The notes under the pieces are model-generated. The model had not been told where the DNA came from. It was given only the letters and a program-made list of their open reading frames with translations, and ran no database searches. DNA of 64,000 nucleotides, from positions 6,045-70,044 of the forward strand of contig JAKPFN010000089.1 of the NCBI GenBank assembly GCA_029551395.1, given 5' to 3'. The position numbers were made by a program, and so were the translations under genes. Every line of letters starts with the position of its first letter. Position 1 is the stretch's first letter. Source of the stretch: Armatimonadota bacterium. Its GTDB lineage: Bacteria > Armatimonadota > UBA5829 > DTLH01. This document shows, piece after piece, positions 17,677 through 55,228 of this stretch.

Positions 17677-17700
17677 AATCCACCTCCGTTTTTGCTGTTC

Positions 17701-22917: not shown

Positions 22918-22925
22918 TTGGCGGA

Positions 22926-37100: not shown

Positions 37101-37250
37101 CTCTACAGTAGGGACAACGTATCTGACTTCGCGGTTCCACCTGATTGGATCGTATCTGAGGATTCTTTGCACGGCATAGGTGGTCTTTCCACTTCCAACA
37201 TCTCCGGTTACAAGCTCAACAGCCAACTCCCTGCCTCCCATCCAAAGCAT
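34098..37250 (-). CDS. addB: Helicase-nuclease subunit B (AddB; inactive helicase-like N-terminus, RecB-type nuclease with an Fe-S staple)
   Basis: 1050 aa. Walker A 'GDVGSGKTTYAV'. C-terminal nuclease 'GKIDRVDVCSDGGLVIDYKFK' with Cys residues 'CPFMHFC' ... 'CKDYCSFKCVC' that fit the AddB iron-staple pattern. Overlaps addA by ~35 nt. Confidence 0.8.
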   Translation of the reverse strand: MLWMGGRELAVELVTGDVGSGKTTYAVQRILRYDPIRWNREVRYVVPTVEMARQVENCIMDQAGISGILGNVVTTFYNLTREFISRAGFASQLISDIQKSVMLQNLVEQANLDYFKRASEFPGFVDALGEIIGELKISLVKPDELDEAIKRASRELTPASSRKLQELSRLYWQYQKEILEANALHDREGLMWRALEVLENENYLSELKCIVFDGFNDLQPVQREFLQKASKDVSEILVTLTYSEGRPEVFKPVEDTRKFVLELNETSETVLKQQEQPQTAIEHLRSNIFSREPARISSDASVTIIEGGTPGIEIELIGDEIRRLTRDQRLKYGDIAIVARQIETYRARIEREFIYSGIPVEPGRQNLAETAYAKLLVTCIDLITGGWRRADVFRILKSELMDSDLAAACKMEVDAKQAGILQGRDNWFKQWEESDTMLALRKKVLGPVAEFEKELQKAKGVEECINAVKKLTAVFRQKSDDESQAQFSSAARAVEGILQDLLQTERLLRRKLNPTQFLGLLKSSISRDTYRLRGKTQDAVKMLSVTGLGGQKFRAVFVVGMLEKVFPRQIQEESFLRDRERRVLNRYLLHPLRERLPQQGTERHLFFSAAAAAREKLYLTYPAADETATDSLPSFYLDEVRKLFNGNVVTIGRDVTDMIPPVEKVETIARLERSVVYRLSHIPCEQADTALAAYNSFLESQPSRFNPVFQNCWDKEAVITCRKILNHLANDNRAYQCTELESYAACPFMHFCQRILGLEAIRDKVGALDIGGILHKVLYRLLTELQAKHGNDFNLRILDRVQTINSAFEILQEEIEKNSKLLHLPAHELELQRHTLRMYLKRYLTGEIEHGPEQLIPAYFELEFGSPPMPDRNRDPHSTDKPLEITNENGCKVKIRGKIDRVDVCSDGGLVIDYKFKKSNKITDFEKGLTLQAMVYALALEQLFDINALGAEYRLLSKWEPDGYYVDASGIKKKNRTMSEQDFDAMLKQCKQFIISIAEDIRAGKIPVAPKDCKDYCSFKCVCRTDDYSQILQKAALVKDDAEEDANEHA

Positions 37251-38216: not shown

Positions 38217-40295
38217 ATGCCGAAAGTCGATGTCAGAGAGAAACAGATTTACGTTGACGATACACCTGTTCCGATTATCTCCGGAGAGGTCCATTACTGG
38301 AGGCTGTCCCCGGACAGGTGGAGAGAGATACTTGAGCGGGTTCGGGAGATGGGGCTTCAGACCGTGGCAACCTATGTCTGTTGGGAATACCACGAGTATG
38401 AGCGCGGGAAGTTCGATTTTACAGGTGAAACAGAGCCTCAGCGGAACCTTGTAGCGTTTCTGGATCTGTTACAGGAAATGGGATTCTGGATAATCATCCG
38501 TCCCGGGCCTTATATCTACTCGGAATGGAAGAACGGAGGAGTGCCGGACTATATCGCACCGTTCCACAGGCTGTCAAACGAGTATCAGTCCGCTGCAAAG
38601 GTGTGGATGGAAGCAGTATCGCAGGTGCTGAAACCTTATCTTGTAACGAATGGCGGAAGAATCTTCCTGTTTCAGCCTGATAACGAGATAGACCTGTTTA
38701 CCCACTGGTTTGAAGATGAAATGGGCTTCAGGGGCAAGCCAGGTTTGTTCCAGCAGTTCCTCAAGGAGCGGTATGACACGGTTGATAAGCTGAACAAGGC
38801 TTGGGATAAGAATTACGAGTCGATAGACCAGGCAGAACCGGTCTCACGGGCGCACTTTATCCTAGATAGAGGCCACAGGGTAGCATTGCTCGACTACTGG
38901 AGGTTCGAACATTATCTGGTAGCTAAAGCTGTCAAATGGCATGTCGATACCTACCGCAAGTTTGGCATTGATGTCCCTATGTATCACAACTACTACTACG
39001 GCGGCGACGTGCAGAACCATCGTGAGATTGCCAAAGTGGTGGACTTCGTCGGAATAGATGTCTATCCCGGCAATGAGTTCGAACTGGAAGGCTATCCAAA
39101 GTCCCACAGCCTTTATATGAATATGCTCCGTTATCAGAGATCGATCTCGCCTATTCCATATATCGCAGAATTCGAGGCTGGTGTCTGGCATGGGCTTCAT
39201 GAAATGGCCGGAATCATTACTCCTAACCATTACAGGATAATGTGCATATCTGCTCTGGCTGCTGGTATGGCAGGCTGGAACTGGTACATGCTGGTCAACC
39301 GGGATAACTGGTACTTCTGCCCGATACAGGAGTGGGGAAGGATCAGGGGAGAGCTTTTCGAAGTCTTCCAGCGCATTACAAGCAACTATAATGAGATGAA
39401 CCCGCCGAAGCTAGATAAAATGACAGACACAACAGTGCTTATGGATCCGCTGCATATAGCTTCAATGCGGCATCTGCATACTGACCTTGTCCTTAAAGCG
39501 CTTTACGAAGCTGACATCGAGCATGAGACCTGGGACCCTGAGACAATGCGGTTCGAAAGGCCTCTTATGTTCTATTCAGGAGACCAGTGGCTTGCCAAAG
39601 CTGACCAGGAGAAGCTGCTGAAGTATGTCGAAAATGGCGGCAATCTCGTCTGCTTCAAGAACTATCCCAGGCTGGACGAGAATCAGCAGCCGTTGAATAT
39701 GCTTGGTATACTCGAACCAGCCCGTGTGCTTTCTCCGCTTGGTAAGCAATTGATAGTGACTCTTGGCGAGGAAACAGCACAGGCCGATGGAGCGGTTTTT
39801 GAATATGATGCAGTCAACCAGCAGGGGATTGAGTGGATTACTGCTGAACAGACTCTTGGCCCGCTTCAGGCAGTCGAAAACAGCGATATTCTGGCAATCA
39901 ACTACCAGGGGAAGAAGTTCACAGTTGGCTATGTGGAGCAGCGAGGAAAGGGGAAAATAGTCGTAATCGGGCTTGATCCCAATCCTGAACTGGTGCTGGC
40001 CGTCCACAGGTTCCTCGATGTTCCAACTTATGCCTGCGCAGATGCATCAGGAGTCCATACGTCGCTGCTCCGGGGTGATGATGCGTGGTATTTGGCAGCA
40101 TCGAACCTGGCTAAAGAGGAGAGAAAATCTCTGGTTGCTCTGGAAGGGCCTGGTACGCCTATAGGAGCCTGCCTTGTTACGGATATGTGGACAGGCGAGG
40201 TCGATGAGGTTGACATCGATGGCAGTATCCTCATTTCCCTCAATGGAAAAAGCGGAAATGTGTGGAAAATCGAGGTGAAAAACAGCGAAACATAA
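38217..40295 (+). CDS. Beta-galactosidase, glycoside hydrolase family 35-like
   Basis: N-terminal TIM-barrel region 'PIISGEVHYWRLSPDRWREILERVREMGLQTVATYVCWEYHEYERGKFDFTG...IIIRPGPYIYSEWKNGGVPDY' matches the GH35 consensus (HY.R...W...GLN...TYV.WN.HE...G.YDF.G...RPGPYICAEW..GG.P). 692 aa. No signal peptide. Confidence 0.7.
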   Translation: MPKVDVREKQIYVDDTPVPIISGEVHYWRLSPDRWREILERVREMGLQTVATYVCWEYHEYERGKFDFTGETEPQRNLVAFLDLLQEMGFWIIIRPGPYIYSEWKNGGVPDYIAPFHRLSNEYQSAAKVWMEAVSQVLKPYLVTNGGRIFLFQPDNEIDLFTHWFEDEMGFRGKPGLFQQFLKERYDTVDKLNKAWDKNYESIDQAEPVSRAHFILDRGHRVALLDYWRFEHYLVAKAVKWHVDTYRKFGIDVPMYHNYYYGGDVQNHREIAKVVDFVGIDVYPGNEFELEGYPKSHSLYMNMLRYQRSISPIPYIAEFEAGVWHGLHEMAGIITPNHYRIMCISALAAGMAGWNWYMLVNRDNWYFCPIQEWGRIRGELFEVFQRITSNYNEMNPPKLDKMTDTTVLMDPLHIASMRHLHTDLVLKALYEADIEHETWDPETMRFERPLMFYSGDQWLAKADQEKLLKYVENGGNLVCFKNYPRLDENQQPLNMLGILEPARVLSPLGKQLIVTLGEETAQADGAVFEYDAVNQQGIEWITAEQTLGPLQAVENSDILAINYQGKKFTVGYVEQRGKGKIVVIGLDPNPELVLAVHRFLDVPTYACADASGVHTSLLRGDDAWYLAASNLAKEERKSLVALEGPGTPIGACLVTDMWTGEVDEVDIDGSILISLNGKSGNVWKIEVKNSET

Positions 40296-41232: not shown

Positions 41233-42261
41233 ATGGGGCTGAGCCGGATGGCAGACTCAGGTCTTAGACCTCAAACAACCTGCAAAGACACCGCAAAGCA
41301 TTTGTTTTGCACCAACCAGCCATATTCGACATTCCTGGCAGCGCAGCAAGGAGTAGAAGAAATGGTCTTAAATGTAGAGCCTTCGTGCAAGACATGCACC
41401 TGCCACGAGGAAGTGGATTTATCGCATGTCGAGAAGATTCTGGCCAAATACAACAATGACCGAGCCGAATTACTCTCGATTCTTGAGGAGGTTCAGGCCG
41501 ATTATGGCTATCTCCCGCAGAATGCACTTCGAATGGTGGCTGAAAGAACAGGCTCCTCGATGGTCGACGTTTTCGGCGTCGCCACTTTCTACCGCGCATT
41601 CAACCTCAAACCCCGAGGCAAACACTGCATCTCTGTGTGCATGGGAACAGCCTGTCATGTTAAAGGTGCGCCGAATGTAGTAAAAGAGTTCGAGCGTCAG
41701 CTTGGAATCTCTGTTGGCGAAACTACCCCAGACAACGAATTTACGCTTGAAACAGTCAATTGCCTTGGAGCAAGCGCACTGGGGCCAATCGTAATGGTTG
41801 ACGGGCATTATTTCTCCCATGTCACTCCCGCAAAAGTAAAGTGGCTCCTGTCAATGGTTCGTGCAGGACTTGATAAGGTCGATGTAAAGACTGATAGCCG
41901 GATAATCCACCTGGATGTGCTGTGTCCTCACTGCAATCAAAGTCTGATGGATTCTGTGCATCCAATAGACGGCTGCCCATCCATCCATACGACCATAACC
42001 TTTAACGGGGTTAGCGGTCATGCAAGATTGTCATCTCTTTATGGAAGTTACTCCATTCAATCAGAGCCTGATGCACCTGTGGGAACTACAGTTGACTTTT
42101 TCTGCCCATCGTGCAATAAAAAACTTACGACGACATCCAGATGTCCCGAATGTGGTGAGTTGATGGCATTGATGAGAGTAAGTGGGGGCGGTGTAGTACA
42201 AATCTGCACGCAGCGTGGATGTAAAGGGCATATACTAGACCTGAGTGAAATCGATATCTAA
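41233..42261 (+). CDS. NuoE/HoxE/HydC-like thioredoxin-fold [2Fe-2S] subunit with a C-terminal zinc-ribbon-like extension
   Basis: 'LSILEEVQADYGYLPQNALRMVAERTGSSMVDVFGVATFYRAFNLKPRGKHCISVCMGTACHVKGA...VNCLGASALGPIVMVDG' is the NuoE-family 2Fe-2S module. The C-terminal ~130 aa carry CxxC pairs ('CPHCNQ', 'CPSCNK', 'CPECGE'). The likely true start is ATG ~41363, with RBS 'AAGGAG' and Met 'MVLNVEPS'. Confidence 0.75.
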   Translation: MGLSRMADSGLRPQTTCKDTAKHLFCTNQPYSTFLAAQQGVEEMVLNVEPSCKTCTCHEEVDLSHVEKILAKYNNDRAELLSILEEVQADYGYLPQNALRMVAERTGSSMVDVFGVATFYRAFNLKPRGKHCISVCMGTACHVKGAPNVVKEFERQLGISVGETTPDNEFTLETVNCLGASALGPIVMVDGHYFSHVTPAKVKWLLSMVRAGLDKVDVKTDSRIIHLDVLCPHCNQSLMDSVHPIDGCPSIHTTITFNGVSGHARLSSLYGSYSIQSEPDAPVGTTVDFFCPSCNKKLTTTSRCPECGELMALMRVSGGGVVQICTQRGCKGHILDLSEIDI

Positions 42262-42314
42262 CAGCCACGGTGAAATAGTCAAGCTTTATTGGGCATAAGA
42301 AGGAATGGATAAGA

Positions 42315-45300
42315 TTGATGGAAAGACTGACTTCCGTTGAGGAGTTTCGGACACTGCAGAGTCGCGTCATTGCAGCTTTAGACCCTACAGTTCCTACCAT
42401 AGTTATCCCGGCCGGCACTTGCGGACAGGCTAGCGGTGCGAGTGATCTGATCAGAGTCGCAAAACGTTATCTCTTGGAAAAACGTTTAACTGATAAGGTT
42501 CGCTTGCGCATCACTGGATGTCATGGGTTCTGCGAAATGGAACCTTCCGTGCTTATCGAACCGCAAAAAACATTCTACCCTCGGGTAAGCATGAGAGATG
42601 TCTCCCGGATCATAGATGCCGCTGTAGAGGGAAAGGTGATCGAAGAACTCCTTTTTGTAGATCCAACGACCGGGGAACGGATTCGCAAGCAAAGTGATAT
42701 CCCATTTTTCAAAAAACAGTTCCGTTTGTTGATGGAAAGAAATGAGCGGGTAGACCCAAGACGGATTTTGGACTATATAGAGTCTGGTGGATATACAGCG
42801 CTGGCAGAGGTACTTGCAGAACGTGATCCTGAATGGGTTGTGTCCGAGGTCAAAGCGTCTGGACTGAGAGGCCGCGGCGGAGCTGGATTTCCTACGGGGA
42901 TTAAATGGGAAATGCTGGCAAAGCAGCCGAGCGATAAAGGCAAATTCATCGTGTGTAATGCTGATGAAGGCGACCCAGGAGCCTACATGGACCGCAGTAT
43001 CCTCGAAGGCAACCCACACAGCATCATTGAAGGGATGATCATTGGAGCTTTTGCGACTGGTGCGACTGATGGGATCATATATGTGTGCTGCGAGTTTCCT
43101 CTGGCTATTAAACATATTGGTATGGCATTGGAACAGGCGTATGAACTCGGGCTGCTGGGTGAAAACATTTTAGGCGCCGGTTTCTCCTTTAATATGACTA
43201 TGGTTAAAGGCGCTGGGGCATTCGTCTGCGGCGAAGAAACCGCCATGATCCACTCTATCGAAGGTTATACCGGCGAGCCAAGGCAAAGACCTCCATTTCC
43301 CATCCAAAAAGGAATAAACGGCAAGCCTACTGCCATTAATAATGTCGAGACATGGGCCAATATCCCGATTATCATCAGGGATGGCGCAAAAGCTTATGCC
43401 AGTATCGGCACTCCAAACAATTCCGGTACAAAAATCTTTAGCTTGGTCGGCAAGGTCAAACACACCGGGCTTGTTGAGATGCCTATGGGTACCACAATCG
43501 GAGAGATTGTATATAACGTAGGCGGTGGAGCTGTTGGCAACAGCGAAATCAAGGCTGTGCAGACTGGCGGGCCTTCAGGTGGATGTATTCCAGCAAGCAG
43601 CTTCGATCTTCCTGTAGATTATGATACGCTGGCTAAGTTCGGTTCGATTATGGGGTCTGGCGGCATGATCGTCATGGATGAAGATACGTGTATGGTCGAT
43701 GTTGCCAAATACTTCATGAACTTCCTGAAGAATGAGTCCTGCGGCAAGTGCTTTACCTGCCGTAAAGGCACTCAGCGGATGTATGAACTGCTGGAAGATA
43801 TTACTCTGGGAGCAGGTACTCCTGAAAGTATAGCTCTTTTGGAAGAACTTGCGTATGTAGTCAAAGACACGACGATGTGCGGTCTAGGGCAGTCGGCATC
43901 GAATTCCGTTTTGAGTTCGCTTAGGCATTTCCGCAATGAATATGAACAGCATGTAGTTGAAGGAAAATGCCCCTCTTATGTATGCAAGGATTTGGTAGGG
44001 GTGCCTTGTCAGACTGCCTGTCCGGTAGGGACTGAAATCTGGCGGTATATTGCGCAGATAGAGCACAAAAATTATGTAGATGCGTATAAAACAATACGTG
44101 AGTCTAACCCATTTCCATCGGTATGTGCTCGAGTGTGCAATCATCCGTGTGAAGACAGATGCAAATCCGGCACAAGCGGCGGGCAGCCAATCAATATCAG
44201 GGCTTTGACGAGGTTCGTTACCGATAATGTCGACCCAGGCGTTTATAAACCGGTAATTGAGCCACAGTTTGGAGATAAACATCCTCAGGTTGCTGTTGTT
44301 GGCGGAGGGCCAGCCGGACTGACAGCCGCGCATTATCTTTCTTTGAAAGGCTGCAAGGTTACTATCTTCGAGCAGGAATCTGAGCTTGGAGGAATGCTTC
44401 TTTCCGTAATACCGGAATACAAGCTGCCAGGAGAGGTTCTAAAATCGGAGATTGCCTCTTTGCTTAACGATAACATCACGCTCAAATACGGCACAGTGCT
44501 TGGGCGAGACATCACTGTTGATGGCTTGTTGAAAGACAACTTCGATGCTGTGTTCCTGAGTTTCGGTGCTCATAATAGTTCTGGGCTGCAATCGGACATT
44601 AAGGATATTCAAGGCGTTTATCCATTGCTGGATTATGTTAAGTCGGTAAATCTGAGAGGCGAAAACCTTGCTATTGGTAAGGTTGGCATCATTGGAGGAA
44701 GCGTTTCTGCTATTGATGCTGCCCGGACAGCCATCAGGTCGGCTAAAGCTGAGAGCGTAACGGTCTTTTATCAAGGGACGCGCGAAGATATGCTGGCAGC
44801 GAAAGATGAAATCGATGCTGCCATCGAAGAAGGTGTCAGTATTGAAACTCTGGTGTCTGTTGAAGAGATCCTCTCTCAAGACGGCAAGTTGGCAGGGGCC
44901 AGGATAGTTAAAAGCAGACTTGGAGACTTCGATTCGGATGGCCGAAGAAGACTTAAGCCGATTGCAGGGAGTGAACAAAAGGTAGATTTGGACACTCTCA
45001 TCATAACCGCATCGGAATCTCCAGATGTGGAATGTTTGCTGAGTAATAGTCATCTAAGCATCGATCTCAATGCTGACGGGACTATAAAAGTGGATGTTGG
45101 AACACTTGCTGCCAGTATTCCCGGTGTCTTTGCTGGAGGTGATATAACCGGCCAGGTTAGCGTCATCGATGCAATCGCAGCAGGAAAAAGAGCTGCTGAG
45201 TCTATTAGCTGTTACCTGCAAGGTAAAGTATATAAACCATCAACTGGTATCCAACTGCCGCAGGTTTTTATAGAACCAAACAGATCTGAAGAAGATGCAA

Positions 45301-45467
45301 GCGGACAAAGCGCCCGGGTCAAGCTTCCAAAGATCGATGTCAGTGAGCGACGTGGAAACTTCAAGGAAGTCGAGATTTCGCTTACACCGGAAAACGCTCT
45401 AAAAGAAGCCGGAAGATGCCTGAGGTGTGATCTGGACTTCTTCAAGTGCAAAGAGTGCCAGGAGTAA
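42315..45467 (+). CDS. Fusion protein: NuoF-like NADH-binding FMN/[4Fe-4S] flavoprotein module + GltD/NfnB-like [4Fe-4S]x2 FAD/NAD(P)H oxidoreductase module
   Basis: N-terminal half: 'GLRGRGGAGFPTGIKWE' (NuoF NADH/FMN site), 'ESCGKCFTCRKGTQRM' (NuoF 4Fe-4S), SLBB-like region. C-terminal half: 'CPSYVCKDLVGVPCQTACPVGTEIWRY...VCARVCNHPCEDRCK' (GltD/DPD-type N-terminal Fe-S domain), 'VAVVGGGPAGLTAAHYL' (FAD), 'VGIIGGSVSAIDAARTA' (NAD(P)H), 'GVFAGGDI'. 1050 aa. The start is more likely ATG 42318. Confidence 0.8.
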   Translation: MMERLTSVEEFRTLQSRVIAALDPTVPTIVIPAGTCGQASGASDLIRVAKRYLLEKRLTDKVRLRITGCHGFCEMEPSVLIEPQKTFYPRVSMRDVSRIIDAAVEGKVIEELLFVDPTTGERIRKQSDIPFFKKQFRLLMERNERVDPRRILDYIESGGYTALAEVLAERDPEWVVSEVKASGLRGRGGAGFPTGIKWEMLAKQPSDKGKFIVCNADEGDPGAYMDRSILEGNPHSIIEGMIIGAFATGATDGIIYVCCEFPLAIKHIGMALEQAYELGLLGENILGAGFSFNMTMVKGAGAFVCGEETAMIHSIEGYTGEPRQRPPFPIQKGINGKPTAINNVETWANIPIIIRDGAKAYASIGTPNNSGTKIFSLVGKVKHTGLVEMPMGTTIGEIVYNVGGGAVGNSEIKAVQTGGPSGGCIPASSFDLPVDYDTLAKFGSIMGSGGMIVMDEDTCMVDVAKYFMNFLKNESCGKCFTCRKGTQRMYELLEDITLGAGTPESIALLEELAYVVKDTTMCGLGQSASNSVLSSLRHFRNEYEQHVVEGKCPSYVCKDLVGVPCQTACPVGTEIWRYIAQIEHKNYVDAYKTIRESNPFPSVCARVCNHPCEDRCKSGTSGGQPINIRALTRFVTDNVDPGVYKPVIEPQFGDKHPQVAVVGGGPAGLTAAHYLSLKGCKVTIFEQESELGGMLLSVIPEYKLPGEVLKSEIASLLNDNITLKYGTVLGRDITVDGLLKDNFDAVFLSFGAHNSSGLQSDIKDIQGVYPLLDYVKSVNLRGENLAIGKVGIIGGSVSAIDAARTAIRSAKAESVTVFYQGTREDMLAAKDEIDAAIEEGVSIETLVSVEEILSQDGKLAGARIVKSRLGDFDSDGRRRLKPIAGSEQKVDLDTLIITASESPDVECLLSNSHLSIDLNADGTIKVDVGTLAASIPGVFAGGDITGQVSVIDAIAAGKRAAESISCYLQGKVYKPSTGIQLPQVFIEPNRSEEDASGQSARVKLPKIDVSERRGNFKEVEISLTPENALKEAGRCLRCDLDFFKCKECQE

Positions 45468-46153
45468 TGAGTATGGTCAACTTTGTTTTAAACGGTTTGC
45501 CTGTTAGTGTTGAGAAAGGATCGACAATACTGGAAGCCGCGCAGTTTTATGGTTTTCCTATTCCAACGTTATGTCACATGGAAGGACTTTCGCCGTACGG
45601 TGCGTGCCGTCTTTGCGTAGTAGAGATAGGCGAAGGACCAAGGGCCAAGCTTGTTACATCCTGTACTTATCCGGTTGAGGAAGGCCTGAAGGTGCGAACT
45701 GCCTCAGAGAGAGTGATTAAAGCACGGAGGATGGTCATAGAGCTTCTTTTGGCTTCGTGCCCGCAGTCTAAAACAATACAAGACCTTGCCTCCGCGCATG
45801 GAGTGAGACAGCAGCGCTTCAGGCAGGAATATGAAGACTGCATACTGTGCGGACGCTGCATACGGATGTGCAAAGAACAGATGATGGCAAAAGCTATAGG
45901 TTTCAGGGGCCGTGGCGAAGGAAGGTCCATCGGTACTCCCTTTGATATGAAGAGTGAACAGTGCAGGCAGTGTGGCGGCTGCATCTATGTATGCCCTGCC
46001 TGCCAGTTGAGATGCACTTACACCGAGCCGGAGAAAGCGGTGTGCGGTGGATGCGCGAATCTGACACCTCCTTGTGTCGAGAAAGATTCGTTTGATGATA
46101 TGATGTGTTATATGAACCCATGTGTAGCTTGTGAAATCAAGAAGGACCTGTAA
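45446..46153 (+). CDS. Ferredoxin subunit: 2Fe-2S (NuoG/HydA N-terminal type) + two [4Fe-4S] motifs
   Basis: 'VNFVLNGLPVSVEKGSTILEAAQFYGFPIPTLCH...GACRLCVVEI' (Fer2_4-like 2Fe-2S), 'CILCGRCIRMC' and 'CRQCGGCIYVCPAC' (4Fe-4S). The start is probably the internal Met 'MSMVNF' overlapping the upstream stop. Confidence 0.75.
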   Translation: MQRVPGVMSMVNFVLNGLPVSVEKGSTILEAAQFYGFPIPTLCHMEGLSPYGACRLCVVEIGEGPRAKLVTSCTYPVEEGLKVRTASERVIKARRMVIELLLASCPQSKTIQDLASAHGVRQQRFRQEYEDCILCGRCIRMCKEQMMAKAIGFRGRGEGRSIGTPFDMKSEQCRQCGGCIYVCPACQLRCTYTEPEKAVCGGCANLTPPCVEKDSFDDMMCYMNPCVACEIKKDL

Positions 46154-47756
46154 GGAGTCAAATGATATGGCGACAGCTTTCTCGAGGGTGAATGCTTCAG
46201 CAGCGACCCTTACCAAGAATCGAACTGAAGGATCAGTATCTTCCATCTCAGGTATGTGCGTGACCTGCGTAGATGGCTGCATCGGTATGTGCGAGATTGG
46301 AAAGTCCGCATACAGGGGCCATGAGGTTATTTATCCGCAGCCGTTTGGTGTTATTACGACTGCTGCTGAAAAGACCTACCCTGTTGACTACTCGCATTTT
46401 AACATAATGGGCACCGCAGTCGGGGCTGTTGGTATTGAGGCCGATAGTGACAAGGCTATATTCCCGAACGTTGACCTTTCGGTCCGATTCGGTCATGACG
46501 GCGGCATTAAGTTCAAACTGCCAATGATTATCCCTGGAATTGGCTCAACGAATATCGCCAAGAATAACTGGGAAGGATTAGCGATCGGTTCGGCGCTTGC
46601 AGGAACAGGTCTGACTATCGGTGAGAATGTTGTAGGTATGGATCCGCAGTCCGTAATCAAAAACGGACGTGTGGTTGATACCGTAGACCTGAAGCGCAGG
46701 GTCAAACTCTTCAAAGACTACCAGCGGGATGGCTGGGGAGAGATAGTTGTTCAGGCTAATGTAGAGGATACAAGGCTTGGAGGCCAGGAATACGCTATAC
46801 AGGAGCTCGGCGTTAGAGTTGTTGAGATGAAATGGGGCCAGGGCGCAAAGGACATCGGCGGCGAGGTCAAAATAAACGACCTGAAGAAGGCCCAACTGCT
46901 TTACGAGCGCGGTTATGTAGTCATACCGAATCCGACTGACCCGAATGTGATTAAAGCATTCGAGCAAGGCGCTTTCAAGGAGTTCGAGCGGCACTCGAGA
47001 GTCGGAATGATCTCTGAAGAGAGCTTTGCAAAGAGGGTGGAGGAACTGCGTAAGGCTGGTGCGAAGTATATCTTCCTGAAGACCGGTGCTTACAGACCTG
47101 CAGACCTTGCCAGAGCTATTGCATGGGCATCCAAATATAAGCTTGACCTGCTGACAGTTGATGGCGCAGGCGGTGGAACCGGTATGAGTCCGTGGAGGAT
47201 GATGAACGAGTGGGGAGTCCCGCCGGTTGAGCTTCATTCATTGCTTTATCAGTTTGCCAAGCGGCTTGCGGACAAGGGGAGGTATCTCCCGGCTTTTGCT
47301 GTTGCAGGTGGATTCACCTTCGAAGACCAGATATTCAAAGGTCTGGCAATGGGCGCTCCATTCGTGAAGCTGGTTGGAATGGCCCGAGGTCCTATTGCCT
47401 CTGCAATGGTAGGAAAGACCATCGGCAGAAGTATGGATGACGGTCAGCTTCCGGTGTATGTGGAGCGATTCGGCACGACCAGGGATGAGATTTTCGTCAC
47501 GGCAGCACATCTCAGGCAGGAACTTGGAGATGATGAGTTCGAAAAGCTGCCTACTGGTGCTCTTGGGCTTTACACCTATTATGAAAGGCTTGCCCAGGGA
47601 CTCCGCCAGTTGATGTGTGGAAGCCGGAAGTTCGCACTGGAGCACATCAGCCGAAACGATATTGCTGCTCTCACCCCGGAGGCATCAAAGGTCAGTGGTA
47701 TCCAGTACATAATGCACGTTGACGAGGACGAGGTAGACCAAATCCTCGACGCGTAG
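46131..47756 (+). CDS. Glutamate synthase large-subunit FMN-binding central domain ('GltB domain 2', PF01645-like) as a stand-alone subunit
   Basis: 541 aa. N-terminal Cys cluster 'CVTCVDGCIGMCE'. TIM-barrel FMN region 'KFKLPMIIPGIGSTN...GENVVGMDPQ', 'LLTVDGAGGGTGMSPWRMMNEWGVP', 'FAVAGGFTFEDQIFKGLAMGAPFVKLVGMARG'. No glutamine amidotransferase domain in the cluster. Confidence 0.7.
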   Translation: MKSRRTCKESNDMATAFSRVNASAATLTKNRTEGSVSSISGMCVTCVDGCIGMCEIGKSAYRGHEVIYPQPFGVITTAAEKTYPVDYSHFNIMGTAVGAVGIEADSDKAIFPNVDLSVRFGHDGGIKFKLPMIIPGIGSTNIAKNNWEGLAIGSALAGTGLTIGENVVGMDPQSVIKNGRVVDTVDLKRRVKLFKDYQRDGWGEIVVQANVEDTRLGGQEYAIQELGVRVVEMKWGQGAKDIGGEVKINDLKKAQLLYERGYVVIPNPTDPNVIKAFEQGAFKEFERHSRVGMISEESFAKRVEELRKAGAKYIFLKTGAYRPADLARAIAWASKYKLDLLTVDGAGGGTGMSPWRMMNEWGVPPVELHSLLYQFAKRLADKGRYLPAFAVAGGFTFEDQIFKGLAMGAPFVKLVGMARGPIASAMVGKTIGRSMDDGQLPVYVERFGTTRDEIFVTAAHLRQELGDDEFEKLPTGALGLYTYYERLAQGLRQLMCGSRKFALEHISRNDIAALTPEASKVSGIQYIMHVDEDEVDQILDA

Positions 47757-48568: not shown

Positions 48569-48961
48569 TTGGAGAAGAAAACTAGCTACCTGATTATTGG
48601 AATGGCAGCTGGTGCAGCAGTTGGAGCCGGTACAGCAATGTTATTAACACCAATGAGTGGTAAAGAGGCAAGGGAAAAAGCCAGACAAAAAGCCCAGGGA
48701 GCTTATAGCTCTGCCAGGCAGCAGGTCTCGTCTGCAACTCAGATGATTGGCCGAAAAGGCGGCTCTATGAGAGCAGTCGATTTGAATAAGGCCGGAAAAG
48801 AGGAATTGATGCAGATAGAGGGCATTGGACCGGATATGGCTGAAAGTATCATTGCTTACCGCAGTCAGCATGGCGGGTTCGGATCGCTGGATGAACTGGA
48901 GAATGCTGTTGGCGCAAGTGTCGTATCGACTTTTAACCTCAAAGGCAAGTTCCATATATAA
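48569..48961 (+). CDS. ComEA-like helix-hairpin-helix DNA-binding protein with a YtxH-like N-terminus
   Basis: 'LNKAGKEELMQIEGIGPDMAESIIAYRSQHGGFGSLDELENAVG' is a tandem HhH (ComEA-type). The N-terminal 'LIIGMAAGAAVGAGTAMLLTP' is an amphipathic/TM segment. Confidence 0.65.
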   Translation: MEKKTSYLIIGMAAGAAVGAGTAMLLTPMSGKEAREKARQKAQGAYSSARQQVSSATQMIGRKGGSMRAVDLNKAGKEELMQIEGIGPDMAESIIAYRSQHGGFGSLDELENAVGASVVSTFNLKGKFHI

Positions 48962-49117
48962 AATCTCCGTATGCTAATGCCCGAGTTGCACAACTCGGGC
49001 TATTTTAGTTTGCCTTCTGGAATATATTATCAGTTAAAGCATTTTATTACTCATTATTCGTTACTTTCCCTTGGCTTTCCCCTCAGGTTATGCGGTATAA
49101 TACAGGCAGGAGAATTA

Positions 49118-50302
49118 ATGTTTATGCGTAGAATCCAACCACTATTCGTTTTCTTACTACTCTTTGTATTCACTGCAATCGCCTGTGCTGCTCCCAAGAA
49201 TGTAATCCTGTTTATCGGTGATGGGATGGGTCATGCTCATATTGCTGCTGCAAGGATAAGCACACTCGGCCAGGGAGGCCGGCTTACAATAGAGAAAATG
49301 CCGGTTACAGGGATGCATACAACACATTCAGCAAATGCTCTGGTGACAGATTCTGCTGCCGGAGCTACAGCGCTTGCTTGTGGAGTCAAGACAAACAACT
49401 ATACAGTAAGCAAATCTCCTGACGGCAGACGCGTAAGATCGATACTTGAAGCTTCAAGAACCATTGGAAAAGCTACAGGCGTTGTGACTACGACTTCAGT
49501 TACTGATGCCACACCCGCGGCCTTTACCTCTCATGTCGATGAAAGAGGAATGCAGCCGGAAATAGCCGGTCAGCAACTCGATGTAAATATCGATGTATTG
49601 ATGGGCGGCGGTAGAGCCTATTTTCTGCCTGAAGGCGACGATGGCTACCGTTCAGATTCAAGAAATCTGCTCTCTGAAGCAGCTGCAAAAGGTTATATCG
49701 TTGTTACAACAGCCGAAGAACTGAACAAAGTAAATAGTGGGAGAGTTTTAGGCTTATTTGCAATGGAGAAGCTGACTACACAGTCCCCTGAGCCTTCGCT
49801 TTCCGAGATGACCAAAAAAGCAATCCAGATACTCTCTCAGGACACGGACGGATTCTTTCTGATGGTTGAAGGTGGGCAAATAGACTCATACGCACACCGC
49901 AATGATCTTGATGGAATGGTCCGGCAGCTTATCGAGTTCGATAAAGCCGTTGCTGAAGGATTGAGCTTTGCACAGCAGAATGGCGATACGCTGGTTGTTG
50001 TTACTGCAGACCATGAAACAGGCGGGCTGACGCTGCTTTCTGACGATGAAGGTAATTTAGGACCATCCTGGTCCACAGGCGGACACAGCGGAATTATGGT
50101 TCCGGTTTTTGCATTCGGCCCAGAGTCCCAGCGCTTTACCGGGCTTATGGATAATACTGATATTAGTAAAAAGATTGGCGCTGTCTGGGGAGTAAAAGTT
50201 GGGTTGTTTGATGTGTCCGATGATGATAAAACAGCCGACTCGGTCCGTATAAAACACGAATACTCCAAGTCGGCTGCAGTAGCTGCTTCATCTACACGCT
50301 AA
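49118..50302 (+). CDS. Alkaline phosphatase (PhoA family), secreted
   Basis: Start chosen at 'MFMRRIQPLFVFLLLFVFTAIACA' (signal peptide) with RBS 'AGGAGAA'. The track ORF starts further upstream at 48971. Motifs: 'ILFIGDGMGH', 'DSAAGATALACGVKT', 'VVTADHETGG', 'GGHSG'. Confidence 0.85.
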   Translation: MFMRRIQPLFVFLLLFVFTAIACAAPKNVILFIGDGMGHAHIAAARISTLGQGGRLTIEKMPVTGMHTTHSANALVTDSAAGATALACGVKTNNYTVSKSPDGRRVRSILEASRTIGKATGVVTTTSVTDATPAAFTSHVDERGMQPEIAGQQLDVNIDVLMGGGRAYFLPEGDDGYRSDSRNLLSEAAAKGYIVVTTAEELNKVNSGRVLGLFAMEKLTTQSPEPSLSEMTKKAIQILSQDTDGFFLMVEGGQIDSYAHRNDLDGMVRQLIEFDKAVAEGLSFAQQNGDTLVVVTADHETGGLTLLSDDEGNLGPSWSTGGHSGIMVPVFAFGPESQRFTGLMDNTDISKKIGAVWGVKVGLFDVSDDDKTADSVRIKHEYSKSAAVAASSTR

Positions 50303-50304
50303 AT

Positions 50305-53300
50305 CTAGTTCTCAGCAGATGTTTCTGCCGTTTCTTTTTTTTCGACGGTATTCTGCTTTGGAGCAGTCTTTCGTCTGGATGTATAACGTCGCCGTGGTTT
50401 TTTGCCGTTTCCGTTGTCTGAGTCAGGTGCTATCTGTTGAACAGGTTCAACAACTGGCTCAGCAACGGGTTCAGACACAACGACCGGCTCAGGTGTTTCT
50501 GCCGGTTCTTTGGATGTCTTTGACGCACGCCGTCCGCGCCGCTTCTGTTTGACTTCCGGTTCCGCAGTAGAAACTGTATCTTCAACAACTACCGGTGCAG
50601 GTTCTACGGCTGCGGTAGCAGTCTCTTCGACAACTGGCGATGCCTTTCTGCTGCGCCGCTTCGGCTTCTTCTCTTCCATTACCGGCTCTTCTGCTTTTAC
50701 AGGTGGTTCTTCGGCAGGAGTCGGCTCAGCAGCAATTGCCTGTTCCTGTGCTGTTTCCACTACATCGGGAGCCTGCTTCACACTACGCCTTTGATGCCGT
50801 CTGGAAGTCCGCTTCCGCTCAGCCGATGGTTCATCCGACACGGCCTCCGCTTTTGGTGAAGCTGCAATCTCAGCCTCTACTTCTTCAGGTTTTACAGGCT
50901 GCTCCTCAGGAATATTCGCACCTTTGGACTTTGTCCGATGCCTGCGCTGCTTTTTAGACGATGATGCTGCAGATGTCTCAGTCTCATTGGCTGCAGTTGT
51001 TGGAGAAGCTTCAATTGTCTCTACTGCTTCACCTTCAGCCGGTTGAGATTTCTGCGCCTCCTGAGTTTCAGCAGCTTCAGTGTGAGAGCGCTTGGACCGT
51101 CTGCCGCGCTTCCGCTTCTTCTCTGCCTGTTGAGCCAACTTTTCCAGTTCTTCCTTTGCAGCACGTTCTGCGAACTCATGCTCCAGTTCAGCCAGGATTT
51201 TTATCATCTGCTCGACAGTTTCGATGTCGCCGCGTCCAGGCGGTATCGGAAGCGGTTCAGGTTGTGTTGATTCCTTATTAGCCTTTCTGCGCTGCGGTTT
51301 ACATGCAGCACCCAAAATGAGCTGTATCGTATGCTTGCCTCCACCAAGTTCGATGTTCGAGTCATAACGGTCTCTGCCATCGACAAGGACTCTGCAGGGT
51401 GCTGGCCCTTTTGGCGGAATGAACTCAGCAATGACACCGGACGGAACTGAGATAAGCAGTGTAAGCCCTCGCCTGACAGTCTGCCATTCTACCGAAACAG
51501 GGCCTGAAGCAGTCTGAACGGTGCCTTTGGCCCATTCAAGCCCTGATGGATGCGGTTCTATCCGCACTCTTTTCGGTTCACCTGTCGGTTTTATGCCCAG
51601 CACGTGTGCAGGAAGCTGATACGCAGGCCCGCTGGACGCTGCATAGCATCGGCAGTCCCCATTTTCAGGATTAAAATGCTCCCAGAACGTCGTAGCGCCC
51701 TCGGAGAGCATTTTACCCCATTTTTCTTTGATTACATCTACTGCTTGTGCAGCAAATCCACTTCTGGACAATGCTTCTACAAGGTAGGATGTAAAATATG
51801 GTGTCGATATCGGCGGCAGACCTTTCTCATCCAGCATCTGCCTGAAGATAGACGACTTCTGGTAGTGGTCTGCGACATCAAACAGTGCAGCAAGTATGTT
51901 TGTCTGCCTTGAATAATGCTCCTGAAGCTTGCCATCTACTCTTGCATCCGCGAAAAGCCCACGGTCACGTGACCAGAAGAACTTGGATATGGCCATTCTC
52001 AGCGCAGAAGCCATTCCGGCCCATTCTTCAGCCTCATTTCTCTTGTGCAGCGCTTCAGCAATCCAGCAGGCTGCACGCAGCGCGCCTAAATACAGGCAGT
52101 TCAGCGCTGCGACTTCACCTCGGCGGTCAATCTCAGCCCAGTCGATAAACAAATCACCTCGGACACGAGACAACAGCCCGTCTGAGTCCGTAAACTGACC
52201 AATCCACTTCAGCCATTTGACAACATTCGGGTAAAGTTCTGCCAGAAGACTCAGGTCTTCGCTCTGCGCATAATATTCCCACAGGCTCATGACCCATAGA
52301 GCAGCAAAGTCAGGGAAAAGCTCTCTTGTGGCGCTGGGGAACATTGCAAAGATAGCGCCGTCACCTTCCTGCGATGCTGCTATATGCCTGAGTCCCTGTT
52401 TCATGAGTTTTGTGTCGCCGAACGCATAGTAAGCGGCACGTGAAGCCACCGAAGCATTGTCCCACCATTGGGTGCGTTCTCTCCAAGGGCTGTCGGTGTA
52501 AGTGTCCTGCATAGACAACCGGGCGGTTTCAGCAGCAGTCCGCCAGATACGGTTCAGTTCTTCATCGCTGCATTCAAAGTTACCCTGCCACTCGACCGGA
52601 TATGATGTCTCATGAACGCGAACATGGCTTATCGAAACTGGTTTCGGACAATTTCTAAGGTCTAATTGAACATAGCGGAAAGCTCGCTGTTCGAAGCTGG
52701 TCCATGTCTGTTTGCCATTACGCAGGATTAATCGGTCGGTGTAGCGTATATCTCCGCGGTTTGGTATTACCTTGCCATCCTGAAGCACTTCGCTGTAGCC
52801 GATGTCCACTATTCCGCCGTTAGACCGGGTGAACTCTAGTTCGATGCTTCCAAATACCTCGCGTCCAAAGTCCAGCACTAGGGATATACCTTCGGGATTA
52901 GGCACAGTTATAGCTGCAGCATCATCATTAGCGCTAATCAGCCTCTCAGGCTTAAACACTCGTCCTTTTTTGAGTGGCTTGAGGTCTTCTTCAGCCATGA
53001 ATGCTGGCATATCTGGAGGTTGAATACCTTCCGGCAGCGGCGGGCAGTTATAGATGGAATACACAGAGTCAGGGTAGACAAGTTGTTCGCGAAGATGCGG
53101 AATTTCACGGGGAACAAGCTTGTAGAAAGGCCGCATCTGGGATTTGCCGAGCACTATAGCCTGCGGCCACTTGGCGTCTTTGAACTTCACCTTGGTCCAA
53201 TTCTGCGGCTCCAAATTTGCATCATAAACTTCTTGCCAACCAAGGCGGCGGCTCATACGGGTTCCGGCTGCTGTCCATTCTGATGCAGGCAGAACACGCC

Positions 53301-53724
53301 AAGTCTCATCTGTTATAATTTTCTCGCTTGCGCCTTCCCATTCGATATCCGCTTCGCAAATCAGTCCGGGCCTGCCGGGGATATAGCTGTAGGTACCTTG
53401 TCCTATATGATGGACAAGGACGGCGATTACATTCTGGCCTTTGACCAGGAAATCTGCAATGTTGTATATATCGTAGCTCTGCCGGTGCGGATCCGACCTT
53501 ACCGGACCGCGCCCCACGAAAACGCCATTTATAAAAAGCTTGTATCGGCTGTCTGCAGAAATCCGTAGTTTAGCATCTACGGGCCTGGCAGGCAACTTGA
53601 AGGCTTTTCTTGCATGGAGGTAGAAGTTGCGGGGACGGCTGTCGCCCTCACACCATACCCAATTGGCGGTCCAGTCGTCTTTTCTTACGAACCGGCTGCG
53701 TCTAGCAACCACTGATTTATCCAT
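50305..53724 (-). CDS. GH78 alpha-L-rhamnosidase-like protein (six-hairpin glycosidase core) fused to a ~330-aa Arg/Lys/Glu/Pro-rich intrinsically disordered C-terminal tail
   Basis: 1139 aa with no signal peptide. Rhamnosidase N-terminal domain ('RISADSRYKLFINGVFVGRGP'), six-hairpin motif 'QDTYTDSPWRERTQWWDNASVASRAAYYAFGD'. The tail has clusters 'KRKRGRRSKRS', 'KKQRRHRTKSK', 'RKRTSRRHQRRS', 'KKPKRRSRK', 'KQKRRGRRASK', 'KKPRRRYTSRRK' interspersed with acidic/PVxEPV stretches. Confidence 0.65.
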   Translation of the reverse strand: MDKSVVARRSRFVRKDDWTANWVWCEGDSRPRNFYLHARKAFKLPARPVDAKLRISADSRYKLFINGVFVGRGPVRSDPHRQSYDIYNIADFLVKGQNVIAVLVHHIGQGTYSYIPGRPGLICEADIEWEGASEKIITDETWRVLPASEWTAAGTRMSRRLGWQEVYDANLEPQNWTKVKFKDAKWPQAIVLGKSQMRPFYKLVPREIPHLREQLVYPDSVYSIYNCPPLPEGIQPPDMPAFMAEEDLKPLKKGRVFKPERLISANDDAAAITVPNPEGISLVLDFGREVFGSIELEFTRSNGGIVDIGYSEVLQDGKVIPNRGDIRYTDRLILRNGKQTWTSFEQRAFRYVQLDLRNCPKPVSISHVRVHETSYPVEWQGNFECSDEELNRIWRTAAETARLSMQDTYTDSPWRERTQWWDNASVASRAAYYAFGDTKLMKQGLRHIAASQEGDGAIFAMFPSATRELFPDFAALWVMSLWEYYAQSEDLSLLAELYPNVVKWLKWIGQFTDSDGLLSRVRGDLFIDWAEIDRRGEVAALNCLYLGALRAACWIAEALHKRNEAEEWAGMASALRMAISKFFWSRDRGLFADARVDGKLQEHYSRQTNILAALFDVADHYQKSSIFRQMLDEKGLPPISTPYFTSYLVEALSRSGFAAQAVDVIKEKWGKMLSEGATTFWEHFNPENGDCRCYAASSGPAYQLPAHVLGIKPTGEPKRVRIEPHPSGLEWAKGTVQTASGPVSVEWQTVRRGLTLLISVPSGVIAEFIPPKGPAPCRVLVDGRDRYDSNIELGGGKHTIQLILGAACKPQRRKANKESTQPEPLPIPPGRGDIETVEQMIKILAELEHEFAERAAKEELEKLAQQAEKKRKRGRRSKRSHTEAAETQEAQKSQPAEGEAVETIEASPTTAANETETSAASSSKKQRRHRTKSKGANIPEEQPVKPEEVEAEIAASPKAEAVSDEPSAERKRTSRRHQRRSVKQAPDVVETAQEQAIAAEPTPAEEPPVKAEEPVMEEKKPKRRSRKASPVVEETATAAVEPAPVVVEDTVSTAEPEVKQKRRGRRASKTSKEPAETPEPVVVSEPVAEPVVEPVQQIAPDSDNGNGKKPRRRYTSRRKTAPKQNTVEKKETAETSAEN

Positions 53725-53845: not shown

Positions 53846-55228
53846 ATGACCGTAATATTCCGCACGTCAACTGGTTTTAATGATATGATACTAACAGCTA
53901 TTCTCCAGTTTGAAAGGAAGCACTGTATGGGTCGTAAGCGGGTGGATATGTTAATCATCGCAGTAGTATTTATTGCAGTACTTGCTGTCATTGGTGCAAT
54001 CTGGTTTATAAATTCGAACCGGATGCCTGAAATCAAACTGCCTACACCAGTAATGCCTTCTCCAAATGCTTATGATTACTACACCAGTGCAGGAAACCTG
54101 ATTGTAGACAGCAAGAAAATCGATGAAATAGTTTATGAGCAAACATTTTCAAGAACAAGAACTTCCCCTAAAGTCTACAGTCTGGCGGAAAAGGAAGCTT
54201 TACTTGCCAATAATGAACCGGCATTGCAGATGATGCGCGATGGCTTTGATTATGAGTGCATGGCACCAGTAAGAAGGTCTTTTGATGCTCTGTTTCCGGA
54301 ATTCCGGCATTTTCAGAACTTGGGCAGACTTTTGTATATTGAGTCGCAGATAAAGTCTGCAAAGGGAGACTATGCTGGTGCAATGGATAGCTGTCTCGAC
54401 GGCATATACTTTGGAGTCAATGCCCCTAGCGGAGGGTCACGTATTCACAGGCTCGTTGGTATATCAAACCAGAAAATTGTACGTGAAGATGCCTGGAAAC
54501 TACTGGAGCAGATGGATGCTGGAGAGTGCAGGGCAGCAGCCGGAAGATTGGAGCATATAGTCTCCAAACAACGACCATTCGCTGAAGTATTAGAAGAAGA
54601 GAAATGGTTTGGAATTGGGGCTTTTCAGGAAGCTGTGCAGAAAGAAACAATGGGAGATTTCATCAGTAGTGCTATATATGATGATAATTCGCTCAGGTCA
54701 CGCATTGTGTGGAACATTAGAGCGCTCAAAACCAGCAAGCAGAAGGTTATCCGAAACTACTCAGACTATATGGACCAATTGATCGAGAACGCAAAGAAAC
54801 CTTACGCGCTGCACCTTCCCGACCCACCAACTCCTGATGACCCGGTAAACTCTGTTCTAGCTCCAGTTCTTAACAGGGCCAGATTTTCGGATGAGTTAAA
54901 CCAGCTTCAGAATGAGTTGCTCCTTCTTAAGCTTGCGATTCGGGCTTACAAACTTGATAATGGAAGGTATCCTGCATCACTTTCTGACCTTACGCCTGAT
55001 TATATCAAGTCCATCCCCAGGGACAGGTTTGTTCTGAAGGGGCCAATCAGATACAAACAGCAAGGCAGCAGTTATGTGCTCTACAGTGTTGGCCCTGATG
55101 GAAAAGACGATGGCGGCAAGCCCATAGATAACATAAAAAGCCCGTCAAGACCTAACGCTGATGAACTAAGGTATCATGTCGAAGATAAAAGCAAAGGCGA
55201 TATAGTAGCAGGTATTAATTTAAAGTAA
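53846..55228 (+). CDS. Membrane-anchored hypothetical protein with a C-terminal T2SS GspG-like (pseudopilin globular) domain
   Basis: Likely start 'MGRKRVDMLIIAVVFIAVLAVIGAIWFI' (single N-terminal TM). C-terminal 'LAIRAYKLDNGRYPASLSDL...DRFVLKGPIRYKQQGSSYVLYSVGPDGKDDGG' resembles the GspG C-terminal consensus (nGrYP...DPWG.PY.Y...Y.L.S.G.DG..GG). Confidence 0.5.
   Translation: MTVIFRTSTGFNDMILTAILQFERKHCMGRKRVDMLIIAVVFIAVLAVIGAIWFINSNRMPEIKLPTPVMPSPNAYDYYTSAGNLIVDSKKIDEIVYEQTFSRTRTSPKVYSLAEKEALLANNEPALQMMRDGFDYECMAPVRRSFDALFPEFRHFQNLGRLLYIESQIKSAKGDYAGAMDSCLDGIYFGVNAPSGGSRIHRLVGISNQKIVREDAWKLLEQMDAGECRAAAGRLEHIVSKQRPFAEVLEEEKWFGIGAFQEAVQKETMGDFISSAIYDDNSLRSRIVWNIRALKTSKQKVIRNYSDYMDQLIENAKKPYALHLPDPPTPDDPVNSVLAPVLNRARFSDELNQLQNELLLLKLAIRAYKLDNGRYPASLSDLTPDYIKSIPRDRFVLKGPIRYKQQGSSYVLYSVGPDGKDDGGKPIDNIKSPSRPNADELRYHVEDKSKGDIVAGINLK

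Follow-up and report, generated by a model that had tools for sequence, protein, structure and literature searches.

Why should a glycosidase that appears to work inside the bacterial cell end in some 330 residues of alternating arginine-rich and acidic sequence? The question is raised by a gene on the reverse strand, at 50305-53724, of a stretch of 64,000 nucleotides of Armatimonadota DNA (the window, meaning the whole stretch that was analysed), whose product belongs to glycoside hydrolase family GH78. Bacterial metabolic enzymes seldom have long disordered regions, and the few charge-patterned intrinsically disordered regions (IDRs) that have been well studied in bacteria, such as the C-terminal domain (CTD) of RNase E, organise RNA decay in condensates. 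Taken jointly, the results presented here make it very probable that the gene encodes a cytoplasmic GH78 glycosidase with an in-frame, disordered tail, near-neutral and charge-segregated, which was gained once and has since been held under purifying selection. Such a tail offers a natural test case in which charge patterning, rather than sequence, may be conserved in a bacterial IDR, and it is a candidate for a new mechanism of localisation or condensation acting on a carbohydrate enzyme; it would be only a curiosity if it proved to be a mere solubility appendage.

Reading frame and enzyme core

The open reading frame (ORF) begins with ATG and runs through 1139 codons with zero internal stops. 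Since just two sense codons lie between an upstream in-frame stop and this ATG, the protein cannot extend further at its N-terminus, and a GAGG-like Shine-Dalgarno sequence is placed 6-9 nt before the start. In the last kilobase of the gene the annotated frame alone is open, since 12 and 28 stops interrupt the remaining two sense frames; a strong coding asymmetry also marks the codon positions of the tail DNA. Moreover, contigs of three independent sequencing runs (SRR35946780, SRR25776748 and SRR35946791) encode exactly this protein of 1139 residues. The single open frame, the identical protein in three samples and the coding asymmetry together establish that the tail is a real feature, at the coordinates given below. 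The continuous ORF of the original prediction is thus upheld: a check for a frameshift dividing two genes was answered by the one open frame, the identity among the three samples and the in-frame character of the indels, and the search for a stop between core and tail found continuous ORFs in about 60 homologues. The gene and the elements of its core are the following, coordinates being those of the window and residues those of the protein.

50305-53724, reverse strand: complete coding sequence, 1139 residues plus a TAG stop (50305-50307); identical protein on contigs from 3 independent samples
53680-53709, reverse strand: N-terminal Arg-rich cluster VARRSRFVRK, residues 6-15; found across the tailed clade, lacking in tail-less relatives
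53146-53583, reverse strand: Bac_rhamnosid_N beta-sandwich, residues 48-193; Pfam E 1.1e-14, aligned to residues 5-213 of RhaB
52630-52881, reverse strand: concanavalin-like Bac_rhamnosid domain, residues 282-365; Pfam E 7e-10
51664-52587, reverse strand: (alpha/alpha)6 catalytic domain Bac_rhamnosid6H (PF17389), residues 380-687; E 1.6e-41, score 143 bits (cutoff 24.5)
51403-51573, reverse strand: Bac_rhamnosid_C beta-sandwich, residues 718-774, by Pfam; the confident fold runs on to about residue 805

The three accessory domains (Bac_rhamnosid_N, Bac_rhamnosid and Bac_rhamnosid_C) all exceed their Pfam gathering cutoffs. In the AlphaFold2 model, for which an alignment of 82 sequences was supplied, the predicted local distance difference test (pLDDT) score is above 90 across residues 13-805 and below 50 in residues 1-12, and the catalytic domain, also above 90, is modelled as a helical barrel. 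With four GH78 Pfam modules and this confident fold, the first 800 or so residues are indeed of the six-hairpin GH78 type, as had been proposed from the ORF alone. The nearest solved structure is RhaB of Bacillus sp. GL1 (2okx; E 6.7e-105), to which residues 17-226 and 279-773 are aligned. Asp411, Glu416, Trp420 and Glu682 of the catalytic domain align with Asp567, Glu572, Trp576 and Glu841 of RhaB, and the catalytic residues proposed for that enzyme, as cited in PMC3663046, are Glu572 together with Asp567 or Glu841. Across 82 family members, Glu occupies the position of Glu416 in 60, Asp that of Asp411 in 71 and Glu that of Glu682 in 77. Asp579 of RhaB, which we take to be a rhamnose-binding residue, is aligned with Asn423 of the window protein, next to which Asp422 is found; at this site most of the family has Gly-Asp, Asp-Asn being specific to the window's subclade. 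The NCBIfam equivalogs of characterised rhamnosidases were not matched (NF041573, 126 bits against a cutoff of 1720; NF041572, 45 against 1800) and, scores being so far under threshold, membership of GH78 is assigned at the level of the family only. The protein is accordingly described as a GH78-family glycosidase, most likely an alpha-L-rhamnosidase judging by its domains and aligned residues.

Regarding localisation, the N-terminus, MDKSVVARRSRFVRKDDWTANW, has no hydrophobic h-region, and inspection of MDKSVVARRSRFVRKDDWTANWVW for a Sec or Tat signal peptide found no hydrophobic stretch ahead of the first beta-strand of the fold, which agrees with the signal-less enzyme described at the outset. 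The enzyme is predicted to be cytoplasmic. A Tat signal, hinted at by the letters RRSRF, was considered and ruled out, as no hydrophobic h-region comes after them. The N-termini of subclade-B homologues (P0017-P0052 and P0072; e.g. 10001-10110 of locus L005) carry the motif ML..L..LLP..G..G followed by RRSRRxRSR, the motif being too short, and the sequence downstream too charged, for a classical signal peptide; in the window protein the hydrophobic part of it is gone and the Arg cluster alone is kept.

Architecture and conservation of the tail

Beyond the core, residues 806-1139 matched no Pfam model even at E <= 10, and they are laid out as follows.

51223-51309, reverse strand: linker, residues 806-834, containing KPQRRKANK, a first basic patch, and the beginning of motif PIPPGRGDIETVEQMI; low pLDDT
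51118-51222, reverse strand: predicted long acidic amphipathic helix, residues 835-869, TVEQMIKILAELEHEFAERAAKEELEKLAQQAEKK; pLDDT 58-80
50308-51120, reverse strand: disordered charge-block array, residues 869-1139, six degenerate units of about 45-55 residues
51082-51120, reverse strand: basic cluster 1, residues 869-881, KKRKRGRRSKRSH
50917-50955, reverse strand: basic cluster 2, residues 924-936, KKQRRHRTKSKGA
50770-50817, reverse strand: basic cluster 3, residues 970-985, RKRTSRRHQRRSVKQA
50638-50670, reverse strand: basic cluster 4, residues 1019-1029, KKPKRRSRKAS
50509-50550, reverse strand: basic cluster 5, residues 1059-1072, KQKRRGRRASKTSK
50365-50403, reverse strand: terminal basic cluster, residues 1108-1120, KKPRRRYTSRRKT, with the only Tyr of the tail; family motif [KR]n-x-Y-x-[KR]2

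The motif PIPPGRGDIETVEQMI spans residues 826-841, reaching into the helix, and is conserved in subclade P0001-P0016. AlphaFold2 predicts the whole of residues 806-1139 to be disordered except for the helix at 835-869, with pLDDT below 50 and no secondary structure over residues 872-1139. Each unit of the array, about 48 residues long, consists of an Arg/Lys cluster and then an acidic spacer made of Glu, Pro, Ala, Val and Thr; the six clusters are 11-16 residues long and lie 41-55 residues apart, and division of the sequence at them gives six units that can be aligned as a degenerate repeat headed by KK-x-[KR]RR-x-RR. As Tandem Repeats Finder detected only a trivial 12-nt repeat of 2.9 copies in the tail DNA, and no tandem repeat of the units themselves, these must be old and degenerate rather than recent duplications. 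Over residues 801-1139 the composition is Glu 16%, Ala 14%, Lys 10%, Pro 10%, Arg 9% and Val 8%, with Ser and Thr adding up to 14%; 64 Lys and Arg stand against 61 Asp and Glu, and charged residues make up a fraction (FCR) of about 0.37. These charges are strongly segregated, with z = 7.5 over 500 shuffles of the same residues, compared with z = 0.1 for the core. Composition, charge blockiness and AlphaFold2 therefore agree in supporting what had first been noted here, a disordered tail of about 330 residues in which Arg-rich and acidic Pro/Val/Glu blocks alternate.

Whether such a tail is peculiar to this genome was asked with a whole-protein search of 5.8 billion proteins, which returned 205 relatives, about 60 of them having 37-61% core identity with the query. 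C-terminal tails of 126-427 residues were found in 62 homologues, and all tailed homologues with a phylum-level name are Armatimonadota metagenome-assembled genomes (MAGs), one being labelled just 'bacterium'. Farther relatives, of 800-850 residues, end directly after the C-terminal beta-sandwich and come from other Armatimonadota, e.g. Chthonomonadaceae, as well as from Planctomycetota, Verrucomicrobiota and Acidobacteriota. A neighbour-joining tree, for which just the core columns were used, separates the proteins into a tailed and a tail-less clade, two members within the former having tails reduced to 41 and 70 residues; this pattern suggests that the tail was gained once and retained for long afterwards. 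The tail is thus not private to one genome; it characterises a clade of Armatimonadota GH78 proteins that is deep, uncultured and monophyletic. One orthologue was found split, at 10001-13287 of L011 (CAVQDB010000003.1, a long-read MAG), where P0060 is 692 residues long and the end of the core, together with a 7-cluster tail, lies in the other frame; this is probably a sequencing frameshift and possibly a pseudogene.

The 62 tails resemble one another in composition and in pattern. Lys and Arg mostly make up 16-23% of them (15-27% overall), Asp and Glu mostly 14-21% (12-22% overall), Pro mostly 9-15% and hydrophobic residues about 5%; Arg accounts for 74% of the basic residues and Glu for 87% of the acidic ones, the net charge having a median of +2. 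Blockiness relative to shuffles reaches a median z of 8.25, with a minimum of 3.1. The basic clusters are spaced at a median of 50 residues (interquartile range 44-55), with a coefficient of variation of 0.31 compared with 0.58 for random placement, being lower in 51 of 56 tails (p ~1e-9), and cluster number follows tail length (r = 0.9) at one cluster per 48 residues. The near-perfect units of about 50 residues seen in P0027 and P0029 suggest that the tail grows by unit duplication, and the family as a whole offers natural variants with 3 to 12 repeats, those two near-perfect arrays included. A basic cluster with a conserved Tyr (the KKxRRxYxRR motif) is present in 37 of the 62 tails, the Tyr often being the only one of the tail; examples at the C-terminus are KKKRRTYTRRPRKK, KPRRRTYRRR and, in the window protein, KKPRRRYTSRRK. 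This cluster lies 4-25 residues from the C-terminus in all but one of these tails, the distance being 48 in P0031; as the sole match in P0038 is 147 residues from the end, the tails with a truly C-terminal motif number 36. At least two RGG, GGR or RGR motifs occur in 47 of the 62 tails, and many subclade-B tails have 10-23.

Selection on the tail was assessed with the orthologous pair at loci L005 and L006, for which the Nei-Gojobori method gave dN/dS values of about 0.16 (tail) and 0.085 (core), which are approximate since dS, at 1.1-1.5, is near saturation. Every indel between these two genes is in frame and within an acidic spacer, and the terminal motif and the basic clusters are essentially identical. 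Similarly, ten close protein pairs show 75-95% identity in the clusters, compared with 49-78% in the spacers, although clusters made only of Lys and Arg reach identity in an alignment more easily. In conservation the basic clusters come close to the catalytic core, the spacers drifting and acquiring indels that keep the frame. Both the dN/dS values and the conservation of the clusters indicate that the tail is translated and that it is under constraint, most of all in its pattern and its basic clusters, and purifying selection is read from these comparisons as keeping it across the deep Armatimonadota clade.

Searches for the tail outside this clade were made by several routes. An exhaustive phmmer search of the tail against 1.84 billion representative proteins recovered the query and two other GH78 members only, and a BLASTP comparison with E. 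coli RNase E was insignificant (E 1.2); no RNase E/G catalytic domain was found by Pfam in the window protein. A word-indexed search with the tail only was uninformative, since low-complexity words swamped the list and zero matches, the query included, were returned. A profile of the KKxRRxYxRR motif, run against 5.8e9 proteins, had 240 word-sharing candidates and none at E <= 10, the motif being too short for a significant match. A composition and cluster detector, run over the window, its flanks and related loci (1.4 Mb), identified the GH78 genes alone as carrying such a tail, the remaining flags being off-frame ORFs of high GC content; a genome-wide habit of such tails was not seen in the window and the 1.4 Mb of related loci. 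Furthermore, the literature searched on Armatimonadetes GH78 enzymes, on disordered rhamnosidase tails and on Armatimonadota IDRs gave no account of one. As far as sequence comparison can tell, the core is that of an ordinary GH78 enzyme and the tail belongs to no known family, IDRs of the RNase E type included.

Possible roles of the tail and its genomic setting

The reading preferred here, tentatively and as a possibility that falls somewhat short of even chances, is that the tail is a multivalent electrostatic module which binds RNA or another polyanion and/or self-associates, so localising the enzyme. A polyanion of the cytoplasm, RNA being the most plausible, would be bound by the regularly spaced Arg clusters, which could alternatively form pairs with acidic blocks on adjacent molecules, and by either route the enzyme, probably dimeric, would be concentrated or localised in an assembly resembling a ribonucleoprotein (RNP) or a condensate, comparable to the one that RNase E forms through the alternating charge patches in its C-terminal IDR. 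In that case a specific docking or RNA-contact site would be provided by the terminal KKxRRxYxRR motif. This reading is favoured because of the preference for Arg, the RGG/RGR motifs, the Tyr flanked by Arg and the RNase E precedent.

Nevertheless, a number of points weigh against it. The functional case is built on composition, pattern and conservation, and the dN/dS values that enter it come from nearly saturated sites. Searches by phmmer, BLASTP and Pfam connected the tail by homology neither with RNase E nor with any family of RNA-binding proteins; no RNA-metabolism gene is a conserved neighbour across the GH78 loci examined; and we know of no reason for a rhamnosidase to associate with RNA. 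The window tail itself has two RGR-type motifs only and a share of Lys above that of most clade members, and its near-zero net charge could favour intramolecular collapse instead. Finally, with Asn423 at the position of RhaB Asp579, full catalytic competence is not certain.

The genomic setting bears on the first of the other explanations, namely that the tail tethers the enzyme to a polyanionic surface other than RNA, such as the anionic inner-membrane leaflet, glycan intermediates (lipid-linked or of the cell wall), the nucleoid or granules of polyphosphate, which would put a rhamnose-trimming enzyme beside the biosynthesis or recycling of envelope polysaccharides. In the window's subclade the GH78 gene stands beside murA, mreB and a gene for an SLH-domain protein, at locus L004 it lies near dTDP-rhamnose-type genes (RmlA/RmlC/RmlD-like), GT4 glycosyltransferases, a Wzx-type flippase and a SpoU methylase, and at L088 and L091 the neighbours are rsfS, a LytR-family (LytR-CpsA-Psr) gene and nadD. 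Apart from the envelope-related genes among these, tethering is favoured by the finding that neither a sugar transporter nor a context of the polysaccharide utilisation locus type occurs at any GH78 locus examined, and by the fact that polybasic clusters are generic binders of polyanions. However, synteny is not kept between subclades, membrane-binding polybasic motifs usually come with hydrophobic or aromatic anchors while the tail is about 5% hydrophobic, the equal content of acidic residues would be repelled by anionic surfaces, and the Arg preference, the RGG motifs and the Tyr are met more typically where nucleic acids are bound or condensates formed. Tethering to such a surface is on balance unlikely.

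Rather more doubtful is the view that the tail has no specific partner and serves passively, as an entropic bristle, a spacer or an enhancer of solubility, being kept only for bulk physicochemical reasons. A sequence diverging so fast that HMMER recognises two relatives only, a length varying from 126 to 427 residues and the two clade members that are down to 41-70 residues would all suit it. A bristle, however, needs no regular spacing of clusters, no conservation of these to near the level of the core, no Tyr-containing terminal motif, no matching Arg cluster at the N-terminus and no charge segregation in each of the 62 tails; in fact, under the established polyampholyte theory of Das and Pappu, the segregation of opposite charges favours compaction and association, not bristle behaviour.

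Regulation or processing in cis is quite improbable. It would take the form of an autoinhibitory or pseudo-substrate fold-back, of cleavage at polybasic sites or of modification at Arg, Ser or Tyr; the carboxylate-lined GH78 active site could dock basic clusters, the clusters are rich in Ser and Thr besides the conserved Tyr, and the helix at 835-869, by the core, is modelled with moderate confidence. Yet AlphaFold2 shows no docking of the tail on the core, six to twelve repeats are too many for one active site, and no protease, kinase or transferase is found in conserved synteny.

The remaining alternative, an artefact in which the tail would be untranslated 3' sequence or a separate gene fused by a frameshift or an assembly error, could appeal to the split orthologue of the nanopore-derived MAG (L011) and to the chance persistence of open frames in low-complexity DNA, but it is effectively refuted, and hardly worth entertaining, given an identical ORF in three independent samples, about 60 homologues with continuous ORFs, one frame only being open, a tail dN/dS of 0.16 and in-frame indels.

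If the preferred reading of the tail as an RNA- or polyanion-binding and self-associating module is carried one step further, the clade enzyme may act, as scaffold or as obligate client, in a bacterial condensate or RNP hitherto unrecognised, and the tail with its KKxRRxYxRR motif a new, independently evolved module. This extension is speculative and we hold it to be doubtful; if true, such a condensate or RNP module would possibly link the turnover of rhamnose glycans to RNA or ribosome biology.

As to the neighbours in themselves, L005 and L006 have genes for an extracytoplasmic function (ECF) sigma factor and an anti-sigma factor beside the GH78 gene, and a conserved operon partner was ruled out, the housekeeping neighbours differing between subclades. 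At L004, whose homologue is 57% identical, a SpoU/RlmB-type RNA methyltransferase gene (13201-14013) starts 6 nt past the GH78 stop on the same strand, and after it, at 14031-23195, comes the polysaccharide cluster of RmlA/C/D-like, GT4 and Wzx genes, which is suggestive, other subclades being without it. In the window a convergent alkaline-phosphatase gene (48971-50302, forward strand) ends with TAA at 50300-50302, 2 nt from the GH78 TAG at 50305-50307, so that there is no room for an intergenic terminator, and the transcripts must overlap or end inside the opposite gene. On the other side, and adjoining the GH78 gene only in the closest genomes, a divergent gene (53846-55228, forward strand) encodes a protein of 460 residues with an N-terminal transmembrane-like segment and no Pfam family, apart from a weak, sub-threshold T2SS-G/pseudopilin match at its C-terminus (E 0.0019).

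Further away in the window, a cluster at 41233-47756 (forward strand) encodes a NuoE-like 2Fe-2S protein, a 2Fe-2S/4Fe-4S ferredoxin-like protein, a glutamate-synthase-domain protein and a fusion of 1050 residues, in which a NuoF-like FMN/4Fe-4S module is joined to a GltD-like pyridine-nucleotide-disulphide oxidoreductase; from its domains it looks like a bifurcating-type or NADPH-linked oxidoreductase complex. At 48569-48961 (forward strand) a protein of 130 residues has a YtxH-like N-terminal segment fused to a ComEA-type helix-hairpin-helix DNA-binding domain. An AddA/AddB-type helicase-nuclease pair, of 1198 and 1050 residues, is encoded at 30536-37250 (reverse strand), and by it, in a housekeeping region, lies a GH35/GH42-type beta-galactosidase gene (38217-40295, forward strand), whose product has no signal peptide and no charged tail.

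Comparison with known systems

With respect to the core, RhaB shares with the window protein the N-terminal beta-sandwich, the concanavalin-like domain, the (alpha/alpha)6 domain and the C-terminal beta-sandwich, and the two are alike in keeping the proposed key residues and in having no signal peptide; RhaB is intracellular. Nevertheless, RhaB, with 956 residues, has an extra domain at about 213-436 which is missing from the window protein and, unlike it, ends at the C-terminal beta-sandwich with no disordered tail.

The tail had been called RNase-E-like in the original prediction, a description that stands for composition and charge pattern but not for homology, as the BLASTP value and the phmmer search, with its GH78 members only, have made clear. 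Both are long C-terminal IDRs placed on an enzyme core, rich in Glu, Pro, Ala, Val and Arg and provided with Arg-rich segments. Between the GH78 tail and the E. coli RNase E CTD, respectively, Lys and Arg amount to 19 and 13%, Asp and Glu to 18 and 17%, Pro to 10 and 11%, Ala to 14 and 15% and hydrophobic residues to 6 and 7%. The GH78 tail is, however, blockier and more regular (z 7.5 compared with 2.2), its net charge is +3 rather than -22, and, unlike the RNase E CTD, it has no recognisable membrane-targeting helix or known partner-binding microdomains. In the AR2 segment of E. coli RNase E (PRRSRRSPRHLRVSGQRRRRYRDERY, residues ~796-819, from the rne gene of L087) an Arg run is broken by Tyr, and this stretch (...GQRRRRYRDERY...) is loosely like the terminal KKPRRRYTSRRK, a superficial likeness, too short for statistics, that serves as a lead only. 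For condensate formation by RNase E, the alternating charge patches within its C-terminal IDR are reported to be both necessary and sufficient (PMC12691583).

A second likeness is with the RGG/RG-motif disordered tails of RNA helicases and RNA-binding proteins, also known from the eukaryotic proteins Ddx4 and LAF-1. Such tails, e.g. those of RhlB helicases, which are reported to form condensates (PMC13462270), and most tails of this clade have in common Arg-Gly-rich clusters within a disordered, charge-patterned sequence, although the window tail has just two of the motifs. The GH78 tail differs from them in sitting on a glycoside hydrolase instead of an RNA enzyme, and its spacers are rich in Pro, Val and Glu rather than in Gly, Ser and Asn.

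Among carbohydrate-active enzymes (CAZymes), the comparison to be made is with the disordered C-terminal regions (dCTRs) of lytic polysaccharide monooxygenases (LPMOs), which, like the GH78 tail, are long, fast-evolving and recurrent within families (PMC8615602, PMC10990093). Those dCTRs belong to secreted enzymes and are weak polyampholytes, a class with an FCR below 0.25, having a high content of Ser, Thr, Pro and Ala and a mean charged fraction of 0.13-0.18 (PMC8615602), whereas the GH78 tail is predicted to be cytoplasmic, has an FCR of about 0.37 and is built of strongly segregated Arg and Glu blocks. In the literature searched, the LPMO dCTRs are thus the sole CAZyme precedent for the tail described here, and a distant one.

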